64,000 bases of DNA, taken from Escherichia coli (GTDB lineage Bacteria > Pseudomonadota > Gammaproteobacteria > Enterobacterales > Enterobacteriaceae). Positions 9,174-9,769 of this stretch are shown piece after piece (the first letter of the stretch is position 1; the number at the start of each line of letters is the position of its first letter). The stretch lies in assembly GCF_017348835.2 (NCBI RefSeq), contig NZ_CP071375.1, one strand, 5' to 3'. The position numbers were made by a program, and so were the translations under genes. Under the pieces are notes generated by a model that worked only from the letters and a program-made list of their open reading frames with translations, was not told the origin of the DNA and did no database searches.

Positions 9174-9605
9174 ATGTTTGGAATCTTCAAAAAGAAAACC
9201 CGCAGAGCGGCAGCGGAAATTAAAAAGTTTGAGAAACGCGATCTGGCACAGGCGGTGATTAACGCTGCATACCTGGTGGCCTATGCAGATGGTGAATGCG
9301 AGGCATCCGAGAAAGCGAAGATCGAACAGGTCTTACGTAATCAGCCTGCGTTGTCTGCGTTTACCTCGGAAATTAATGCGATTAGCGCAACTATTATCGG
9401 TCAGCTGGATACCAATTTTAAAATTGGTCGTCGTGCCGCGTTACGCGAGAGTGAGGATGTGAAACACGATACGCGTGAAGCGGAAGATGTGCTGGATGTG
9501 GCGGTGGCCATTGCGGAGGCAGACGGCGAAATTGAGCCGGAAGAGCGCAAGGTGCTGGAAGAGATTGCCGGTGTTCTGGGTCTTCGTCTGGAGAATCACC
9601 TGTGA
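9174..9605 (+). CDS. TerB-like (tellurite-resistance TerB / DjlA N-terminal-like) domain protein
   Basis: 143 aa from ATG 9174 with RBS aaggaa. Two internal repeats of the acidic helix motif (AYLVAYADGECEASE / VAVAIAEADGEIEPEE) typical of TerB. Confidence 0.55.
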   Translation: MFGIFKKKTRRAAAEIKKFEKRDLAQAVINAAYLVAYADGECEASEKAKIEQVLRNQPALSAFTSEINAISATIIGQLDTNFKIGRRAALRESEDVKHDTREAEDVLDVAVAIAEADGEIEPEERKVLEEIAGVLGLRLENHL

Positions 9606-9769
9606 CGGTAAAACTGCGCCTGGCTGTGGCTGCACTCCTGCTGTTTCTGGTGGTGATGGTGGATTTCACCAGCAGAATCATGTCGGTGCTGGCGGATGGG
9701 GTGCTGGTCTGCGGCATTGTGGTATTGCTGTGGCCGGTGATAAAAAGAAACAGCCTGCATAATGCTTGA
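9602..9769 (+). CDS. Small membrane protein (55 aa, GTG start overlapping the TerB-like stop)
   Basis: VTVKLRLAVAALLLFLVVMV...GVLVCGIVVLLWPV gives two hydrophobic segments. GTGA overlap suggests translational coupling. Confidence 0.3.
   Translation: MTVKLRLAVAALLLFLVVMVDFTSRIMSVLADGVLVCGIVVLLWPVIKRNSLHNA

Follow-up and report, generated by a model that had tools for sequence, protein, structure and literature searches.

The tciA and tciB genes of an Escherichia coli prophage form a pair that is already known, the tciA/tciB family of phage P1 (PHROG 632/1470; Pfam TerB plus DUF3927), and the one new thing at their locus is the leader RNA that precedes tciA. The genes lie in a stretch of 64,000 nucleotides (nt) of contig NZ_CP071375.1 (assembly GCF_017348835.2), which is referred to here as the window and to which coordinates apply unless another record is named. 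As to the role of the pair, we favour, at a probability of roughly 0.45, a model in which TciB serves TciA as an anchor or partner at the inner membrane and the two proteins act as a non-essential accessory of the lytic cycle, in stress or ion control or in superinfection exclusion. The leader is tentatively regarded as a cis-acting structured RNA of a class not yet described, shared as a cargo-gene leader and translational gate among enterobacterial phages. The elements in question are:

9048–9173, plus strand: structured leader RNA of tciA, recognized by conservation, covariance model R1 and covariation
9174–9605, plus strand: tciA, first open reading frame of the pair, ATG start, TGA stop, 143 amino acids
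9602–9769, plus strand: tciB, second open reading frame, GTG start, TGA stop, 55 amino acids

Identity and spread of the tciAB pair

The first-pass annotation of the window had taken the two genes for an undescribed system, a view that does not hold because the pair is catalogued in the annotations of phages P1 and P7, in Pfam (DUF3927), in PHROGs and by the RefSeq pipeline PGAP. A translated search of 50,697 phage records found the TerB protein in 131 of them. The genes are annotated as tciA/tciB in JLK-2012 (96.5% identity) and in P1 (TciA 42%, TciB 50% identity) and as terB/upf69.4 in P7 (51%), and the P7 record names homologues in the O157:H7 cryptic prophages CP-933R and CP-933P. Copies with 67–71% identity are present in Erwinia jumbo phages; further carriers are Klebsiella, Pseudomonas and Vibrio phages, N4-like Salmonella and Escherichia phages, P2-like phages, Salmonella jumbo phages and the virulent Pseudomonas phage PMBT3. 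RefSeq labels an identical copy of the pair 'tellurite resistance TerB family protein' and 'DUF3927 family protein', and PHROGs places both proteins in the category 'moron, auxiliary metabolic gene and host takeover'. Several genome papers note a lone terB without assigning a role to it.

The pair is common in the host species. At least 80% of it was found in 801 of 5,426 complete E. coli genomes (~15%); where any match exists, the number of matching places per genome has a median of 4 and reaches 10. It is enriched in genomes of the enterohaemorrhagic and enteropathogenic E. coli (EHEC/EPEC) type that contain many prophages.

The closest parallel in organization is provided by tciA-tciB-tciC of P1 and terB-upf69.4-upf69.6 of P7, where, as in the window, a TerB protein of ~142 amino acids is followed by a DUF3927 peptide of ~54 amino acids with overlapping stop and start codons, and where tRNA genes are adjacent. 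Unlike the window, P1 has a third gene, tciC, for a 35-amino-acid peptide with a single transmembrane (TM) segment, and P7 has upf69.6. The one candidate for a tciC equivalent, an open reading frame for 31 amino acids at 9762–9857, was rejected as it overlaps the small RNA (sRNA) gene STnc100 and does not resemble P1 TciC; no equivalent is present here. Moreover, the P1 copy belongs to the C1-controlled ban operon and lacks a structured leader, whereas the copy in the window occupies a Q-dependent late slot and possesses such a leader.

TciA and TciB and their coupling

TciA matches Pfam TerB (PF05099) over residues 26–138 (E = 2.8e-15; 57.1 bits against a cut-off of 24.4) and PHROG 632 ('tellurite resistance') over its entire length (residues 1–143 of 143; E = 1.8e-68). 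An AlphaFold2 model based on 36 homologues has a pLDDT (predicted local distance difference test) of 88.9 and six helices. Foldseek found agreement of this model with structure 2H5N, and a sequence search of the PDB returned TerB of Klebsiella (KP-TerB, 2JXU). TciA is thus shown by modelling as a soluble, all-helical protein with a predicted TerB fold, which bears out the TerB assignment of the first-pass annotation and disposes of its reservation that the protein might lack this fold. Two acidic motifs of the type DGxxxxxE are present (D39, G40, E46 and D117, G118, E124), and these six residues are invariant or nearly so in alignments of 5 and of 36 sequences. The N-terminus is basic (MFGIFKKK), and the C-terminal part of the protein weakly matches the DjlA model.

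TciA shares with KP-TerB, a product of the terZABCDEF operon, the Pfam domain, the helical fold and the acidic motifs, but sequence similarity is distant (E = 3.3e-07) and TciA is phage-borne. Also unlike the situation in the ter operon, no terZ, terA, terC, terD, terE or terF neighbour is present in 20 kb of RefSeq annotation; the neighbours are Q, tRNAs, sRNAs and an esterase gene. While the ter operon includes the multi-pass membrane protein TerC, the partner here is a hairpin of 55 amino acids.

TciB matches Pfam DUF3927 (PF13064; E = 4.3e-17; 62 bits against a cut-off of 25) and PHROG 1470, 'TciB-like' (residues 1–54 of 54; E = 4e-30). Two hydrophobic stretches are separated by the sequence DFTSR, in line with the two TM helices assumed in the first-pass annotation. 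Relatives are 49–60 amino acids long, have a conserved two-TM hairpin and follow the pattern R..LLFLVV..DFTS...S.L.DG..V........P..K. The small reading frame is under purifying selection, with a median ratio of non-synonymous to synonymous substitution rates (dN/dS) of 0.30 over 590 pairs.

The GTG start codon of tciB overlaps the tciA stop codon as GTGA, as had been noticed before, and a GGAG motif lies 8 nt ahead of the GTG. For comparison, 121 loci with a TciA-class gene were drawn from viral contigs, phage records and a set of genomes with one representative of each species. A DUF3927 gene follows immediately downstream in 106 of them, which together with the dN/dS value confirms that the small gene is conserved; four other loci end at a contig edge after tciA. 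Among 49 distinct DUF3927 partners, 46 overlap the tciA stop codon, 31 by 4 nt (GTGA or ATGA) and 15 by 1 nt (TAATG or TGATG). The overlapping GTG start points to translational coupling of tciA and tciB. In nine of the 121 loci, all from Pseudomonas, the partner is a different protein of 67–72 amino acids with one N-terminal TM segment (phrog_27356; motif C..YG.QT.R.T....FVGCMV...G.W.PR; without a Pfam family). Its gene starts at or beside the tciA stop codon, mostly with the same 4-nt overlap (L100–L107 and L097; ~6447–6650). No such partner was seen next to more distant TerB proteins, from Streptomyces and others, in the loci collected.

Two deviating arrangements were observed. In the E. 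coli chromosomes H119–H125 a gene annotated as 'DUF3927 domain-containing protein' matches only nt 13–87 of the query, which code for the N-terminus of TciA; this suggests deletion derivatives in which the TciA N-terminus is fused to the TM peptide. The metagenomic phage contigs L164 and L167 have a gene for a protein of 134 amino acids after tciA (~2069–2504), and no DUF3927 gene was called there. The protein of L164 has a weak TerB match of its own, and these contigs may represent a tandem TerB variant of the module.

A structured leader RNA upstream of tciA

The tciA leader of ~125 nt is better conserved than the protein encoded downstream: leaders are 80–86% identical where TciA alleles are only 42–45% identical. 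It is conserved across genera and is also recognizable before tciA of Erwinia and Salmonella jumbo phages. The comparative model was obtained by manual assignment of helices followed by a covariance model and pair counts. It comprises the following elements, SD denoting the Shine-Dalgarno sequence:

9048–9052 with 9059–9063: hairpin P0 (GCGC hairpin)
9071–9078 with 9119–9126: helix A, CCACAGAG with CUCUGUGG
9079–9083: anti-SD sequence CCUUU, invariant
9087–9095 with 9147–9155: helix B
9099–9107 with 9130–9138: helix C
9160–9164: SD sequence AAAGG

Because its 3' strand sits in the loop of helix C, helix A makes a pseudoknot. CCUUU can pair with the AAAGG of the SD sequence, which extends helix B; conservation of this pairing is 95%, and L162 shows the single compensatory variant (CCUAU/AUAGG). 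The helices are retained in different lineages although their sequences differ: helix C reads GGAGUGGUC/GAUCGCUCC in the window, GAGAAAACC/GGUUUUCUC in L164 and GGGCAAA/UUUGCC in another class, and helix A reads CCGUAGAG/CUCUACGG in jumbo phages and GAAAGU/ACUUUC in another class.

Covariance model R1 was built on helices B and C. In alignment A7 of 49 sequences, whose pair counts have to be read with the caveat that it was fitted to these same two helices, 88.5% of cells are paired compared with 30–51% in slid controls, and both sides have changed in 20 of 31 pairs. Its covariation score is 0.296 versus 0.148 ± 0.007 in shuffled alignments, none of 500 shuffles reaching the observed value. 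Helix A, which lies outside model R1, also covaries. Folding of the single sequence by minimum free energy gave a different, nested fold, and RNAalifold run on a MAFFT alignment recovered helix A only. G-U pairs occur often, and the element invariably lies on the sense strand with a constant spacing to the start codon, which argues that it acts as RNA. A promoter within the leader was considered and rejected since the motif 5' of helix A varies (CATATC, CAATTC, CATCTC) and lacks the T at –7, and the promoter scan found no site.

The leader is not confined to tciA. The window itself contains a second copy directly upstream of an antirepressor-like gene, with compensatory changes in helices A and B:

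13758–13886, plus strand: second leader copy (model R1, 44.9 bits, E = 1e-08)
13878–14432: antirepressor-like gene (Pfam P22_AR_N), between the lysozyme and Rz genes

When viral contigs were scanned for the pattern and then searched with R1, many more copies emerged (loci L002, L005, L079, L090, L093, L112, L113, L162–L174 and L175–L251). The element occurs in lambdoid prophages as well as in the jumbo phages. Its copies precede at least eight unrelated families of accessory genes, i.e., TerB/TciA, P22_AR_N, ANT/KilAC, Rha, two KilA-N types, HNH_3 and T5orf172, in addition to genes of unknown kind. Nearly all copies have an intrinsic terminator 25–60 nt upstream. No Rfam 15 family matched 9048–9173 or 13758–13886 (E up to 1–10), and the literature searched contains no description of this leader. 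The microRNA-size RNA 24B_1 of phage Phi24B was also considered and rejected, as its predicted target lies inside d_ant and not in the d_ant leader.

In one locus the motif is interrupted. In phage PPompW_132418 (L291, 3001–4501) the IS110-family element ISEc20 is inserted into the leader motif, behind nt 46 of the query 9044–9173. The insertion site corresponds to ~9044–9089 of the window; the region from tciAB to the lysis genes is missing there, and the terminase gene follows directly. The junction is shared by 11 PPompW and Stx2a phage records.

We propose that the leader gates translation of tciA by pairing of CCUUU with the SD sequence, possibly switched by the pseudoknot helix A. Such a gate might be riboswitch-like or be operated by a protein or an sRNA, and it would time the translation of acquired cargo within long phage transcripts. 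In its conserved fold, its pseudoknot and its anti-SD:SD pairing ahead of the start codon the element resembles SD-sequestering translational riboswitches and leader pseudoknots. The IsrK/anrP system of Gifsy-1 is a comparable leader system. Unlike these, the present element has no match in Rfam 15 and precedes functionally heterogeneous accessory genes of phages.

The slot occupied by tciAB

The surroundings of the pair are made up of the following features:

7787–8608, plus strand: gene of the late antiterminator Q, 273 amino acids (Pfam Antiterm PF03589, E = 4.7e-50; RefSeq 'antitermination protein')
8752–8827, plus strand: tRNA(CAT) (ARAGORN and Rfam tRNA; in RefSeq tRNA-Ile, Ile2-type)
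8928–9004, plus strand: tRNA-Arg(UCU) (ARAGORN, Rfam tRNA and RefSeq)
9017–9042, plus strand: intrinsic-terminator-like hairpin (9017–9036) with T-run, from a consensus scan; left end of the conserved tciAB cassette
9774–9966, plus strand: sRNA STnc100, PasD-related family (Rfam RF02076, 145.8 bits against a gathering score of 47)
9937–9954, plus strand: terminator-like hairpin from the consensus scan, equal to the STnc100 terminator
9967–10028, minus strand: sRNA AgvB (anti-GcvB), full length (Rfam RF02702, 96.5 bits against a gathering score of 56)
10176–12026, plus strand: sialate O-acetylesterase-like gene (Pfam DUF1737, SASA and DUF6645), right-hand backbone of the slot
12474–12680 (window equivalent): class II holin gene (RefSeq annotation)

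The Q gene marks the start of the late operon that contains tciAB, and the esterase gene is homologous to yjhS of Shiga toxin (Stx) phages. The genes of the Stx1 phage BP-4795 are arranged in the order Q, stxA1B1, STnc100, AgvB-like RNA and yjhS esterase, with the STnc100/AgvB/esterase backbone beginning ~80 nt past stxB1; DNA homology of this phage to the window starts at 9789, ~20 nt past the tciB stop codon. An STnc100 copy has also been reported 75 nt downstream of stx2 (PMC12370729). Since BP-4795 has the same backbone right after stxB1, the slot of tciAB, between Q and the tRNAs on one side and STnc100, AgvB and the esterase on the other, is equivalent to that of stx, as the first-pass annotation had recognized. 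stxAB and other cargo of this slot share the insertion point and the backbone with tciAB, but the proteins are unrelated. Furthermore, stx of Stx1 phages has its own regulated promoter, whereas tciAB brings along a terminator and a structured leader.

Homology of the cassette has its boundaries at ~9017–9044 and ~9750, and the hairpin at 9017–9042 also precedes the leader in loci with differing upstream DNA. The earlier description of the pair as bracketed by two terminators therefore needs revision. Both hairpins exist; the downstream one is the 3' end of STnc100 rather than a bracket, and the upstream one is part of a conserved terminator-plus-leader cassette that had gone unseen.

STnc100 starts 5 nt past the tciB stop codon and is convergent, tail to tail, with AgvB in the interval between tciB and the esterase gene. 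The sequence CATAAT is present inside the 3' end of tciB (9758–9763). STnc100 could have a promoter of its own or be derived from the 3' untranslated region of tciAB.

tciAB are often located within 200 nt of phage tRNA genes in otherwise unrelated phages (L001, L003, L004, L005, L088, L113), tRNA-adjacent copies being those of the window, JLK-2012, P1/P7 and the jumbo phage Asesino. A functional link to the tRNAs was discarded because most loci in other species have no tRNA gene within 6 kb; the proximity probably reflects a shared hotspot for cargo.

Elsewhere in the prophage, in its early-right region, the Rfam antitoxin RNA sok (5170–5344, plus strand; 113.5 bits) adjoins a gene of the Hok/Gef family, and the region is a toxin-antitoxin locus of the hok/sok type.

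Genomic contexts and expression

In other species the pair is found next to lambdoid Q and holin genes, early genes of P2/186-like phages (DUF5405, DUF2732, Fil, gpA), repressor-like genes, the P1 ban operon, tRNA clusters of jumbo phages, and thyX or dUTPase genes of virulent phages. Because these neighbours vary in kind, the gene orders indicate a mobile cargo unit without a specific tie to lysis, and the lysis linkage proposed in the first-pass annotation is not retained.

This variety also bears on the idea that the pair times lysis, with TciB as a holin- or antiholin-like peptide and TciA as its cytoplasmic regulator that tunes membrane permeabilization. The location in the late operon ~2.7 kb upstream of the class II holin gene would fit such a device, as would the size and two-TM layout of TciB, which resemble those of small holin-like peptides. 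We consider it quite unlikely, however, as TciB matches no Pfam holin family but only DUF3927, and the prophage already has holin, endolysin and spanin genes of its own. Other phages carry the pair among early or replication genes (in the P1 ban operon, in early regions of the P2/186-like type, beside thyX or dUTPase), and knock-down of tciABC leaves plaque formation by P1 unaffected.

A simple consensus scan, which would miss non-consensus promoters, detected no sigma-70 promoter-like site on the plus strand between 8400 and 10400. If tciAB are viewed as a possible moron, an autonomous unit of promoter, gene and terminator within a phage late operon, no sigma-70-like site is seen on their strand, although weak or non-sigma-70 promoters could escape such a scan; a terminator lies upstream (9017–9036), and the next one downstream belongs to STnc100. 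The P1 copy follows the operator at which C1 represses the ban operon. Published transcriptome data show its induction during P1vir infection; in the Δhfq background tciA was over-induced and tciB and tciC were under-induced relative to the wild type at both time points. In a screen of P1 by CRISPR interference tciA, tciB and tciC were non-essential (PMC10695390).

The upstream terminator together with the lack of a sigma-70 site, the C1-repressed operon of P1 and the many virulent carriers argue that the pair would be expressed during lytic growth, and this in turn speaks against two further roles. The first is lysogenic conversion, in which the pair would provide the lysogen with resistance to tellurite, oxidative stress or pore-forming colicins in the manner of terB of terZABCDEF. 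The TerB homology, the PHROG category of both proteins and the enrichment in prophage-rich EHEC/EPEC-type genomes are compatible with this role, and STnc100 copies, neighbours of tciAB here, are transcribed in uninduced EHEC cultures. Nevertheless it appears unlikely: there are no ter genes nearby and a lone terB is considered insufficient, the consensus scan shows no recognizable promoter and a terminator lies upstream, and the pair is also carried by virulent phages and by the repressed operon of P1.

The second is the abortive-infection module suggested in the first-pass annotation. Here, TerB would sense the perturbation of the membrane by an incoming phage and the TM peptide would depolarize the membrane so that the cell dies. 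The validated defence systems Shango and Bunzi, for which membrane surveillance has been proposed, do contain TerB domains, and a short peptide with two TM segments might conceivably be toxic to the membrane. When compared with the models of PADLOC-DB v2, TciA gave a weak match to the candidate system PDC-S48 (E = 0.0038, 36 residues), which does not rise above noise, and TciB gave none. Self-killing makes no sense in the strictly virulent phages that carry the pair, among them the N4-like phages, the Erwinia and Salmonella jumbo phages and PMBT3. The scan revealed no promoter for expression in a lysogen, a terminator lies just upstream, and the P1 pair is under the C1-repressed ban operator. 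In addition, so many matching places in a positive genome (median 4, maximum 10) would be unusual for a toxic module. We therefore regard an abortive-infection function as very unlikely.

A model for TciAB function

The arrangement can be viewed as a mobile cassette, consisting of intrinsic terminator, leader RNA, tciA and tciB, that would have been inserted into the cargo slot of a lambdoid late operon. Overlapping stop and start codons would ensure that TciA and TciB are made in a fixed proportion. According to our proposal, the TerB domain would be tethered or partnered by the small membrane protein and so be placed at the inner membrane, on its cytoplasmic side. This proposal is based mainly on the coupling of a TerB domain to a small membrane protein and on the Pseudomonas loci, where the partner is swapped and the coupling is kept. 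It is paralleled by DjlA, in which a TM helix is followed by a TerB-like domain, and by the TerB protein of Bunzi, which has TM helices; TerB itself has been reported to be membrane-associated. In DjlA and Bunzi the TerB-like domain likewise resides at the cytoplasmic face of the inner membrane, yet their TM segment belongs to the same chain as that domain, and effector domains (J domain, ATPase/helicase partners) are present, whereas here the TM segment is supplied by a separate, coupled peptide and no effector domain is present.

The pair would be made in lytic growth and not in the lysogen. Transcription would result from Q-dependent read-through in lambdoid phages and be part of the expression of the ban operon, under C1 repression, in P1; virulent phages would transcribe the pair by default. 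The role is expected to be dispensable and to matter at the level of fitness, at the membrane of the infected cell. On the one hand, TciAB might buffer ion stress or envelope and oxidative stress and so keep the membrane energized until programmed lysis. On the other hand, they might block superinfecting phages and pore-forming colicins. Both kinds of phenotype have historically been linked to ter genes. Iyer et al. suggested that stand-alone TerB of Erwinia jumbo phages serves in the competition with superinfecting phages (PMC7824862).

Several points weigh against this model. No functional study of the tciA/tciB pair was found in the literature searched, and the names 'tellurite/colicin resistance/cell division' were given on homology only. 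The neighbourhood lacks other ter genes, and it has been argued in the literature that terB by itself cannot confer tellurite resistance. The promoter scan is blind to non-consensus sites, and the transcription of STnc100 in uninduced cultures leaves room for some expression of the neighbourhood in lysogens. Finally, two apparent TerB-DUF3927 fusions (P0004, 197 amino acids, and P0066) do not count as evidence of an interaction, as their junctions read through other frames and they appear to be indel or frameshift artefacts of draft assemblies.

Implications

The pair is an ordinary, widely annotated accessory module of phages, correctly filed as tciA/tciB and not as an undescribed abortive-infection system. 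With its presence in ~15% of complete E. coli genomes, often in several places, and its occurrence in the Shiga toxin slot it is nonetheless worth testing. The leader RNA matters more than the pair. Should it prove to be a genuine regulatory element, it would account for the way in which widely differing genes acquired in the late region of phages come under one control device. It would also supply a sequence by which such cargo genes can be located, and would constitute a new class of structured RNA with many natural variants.

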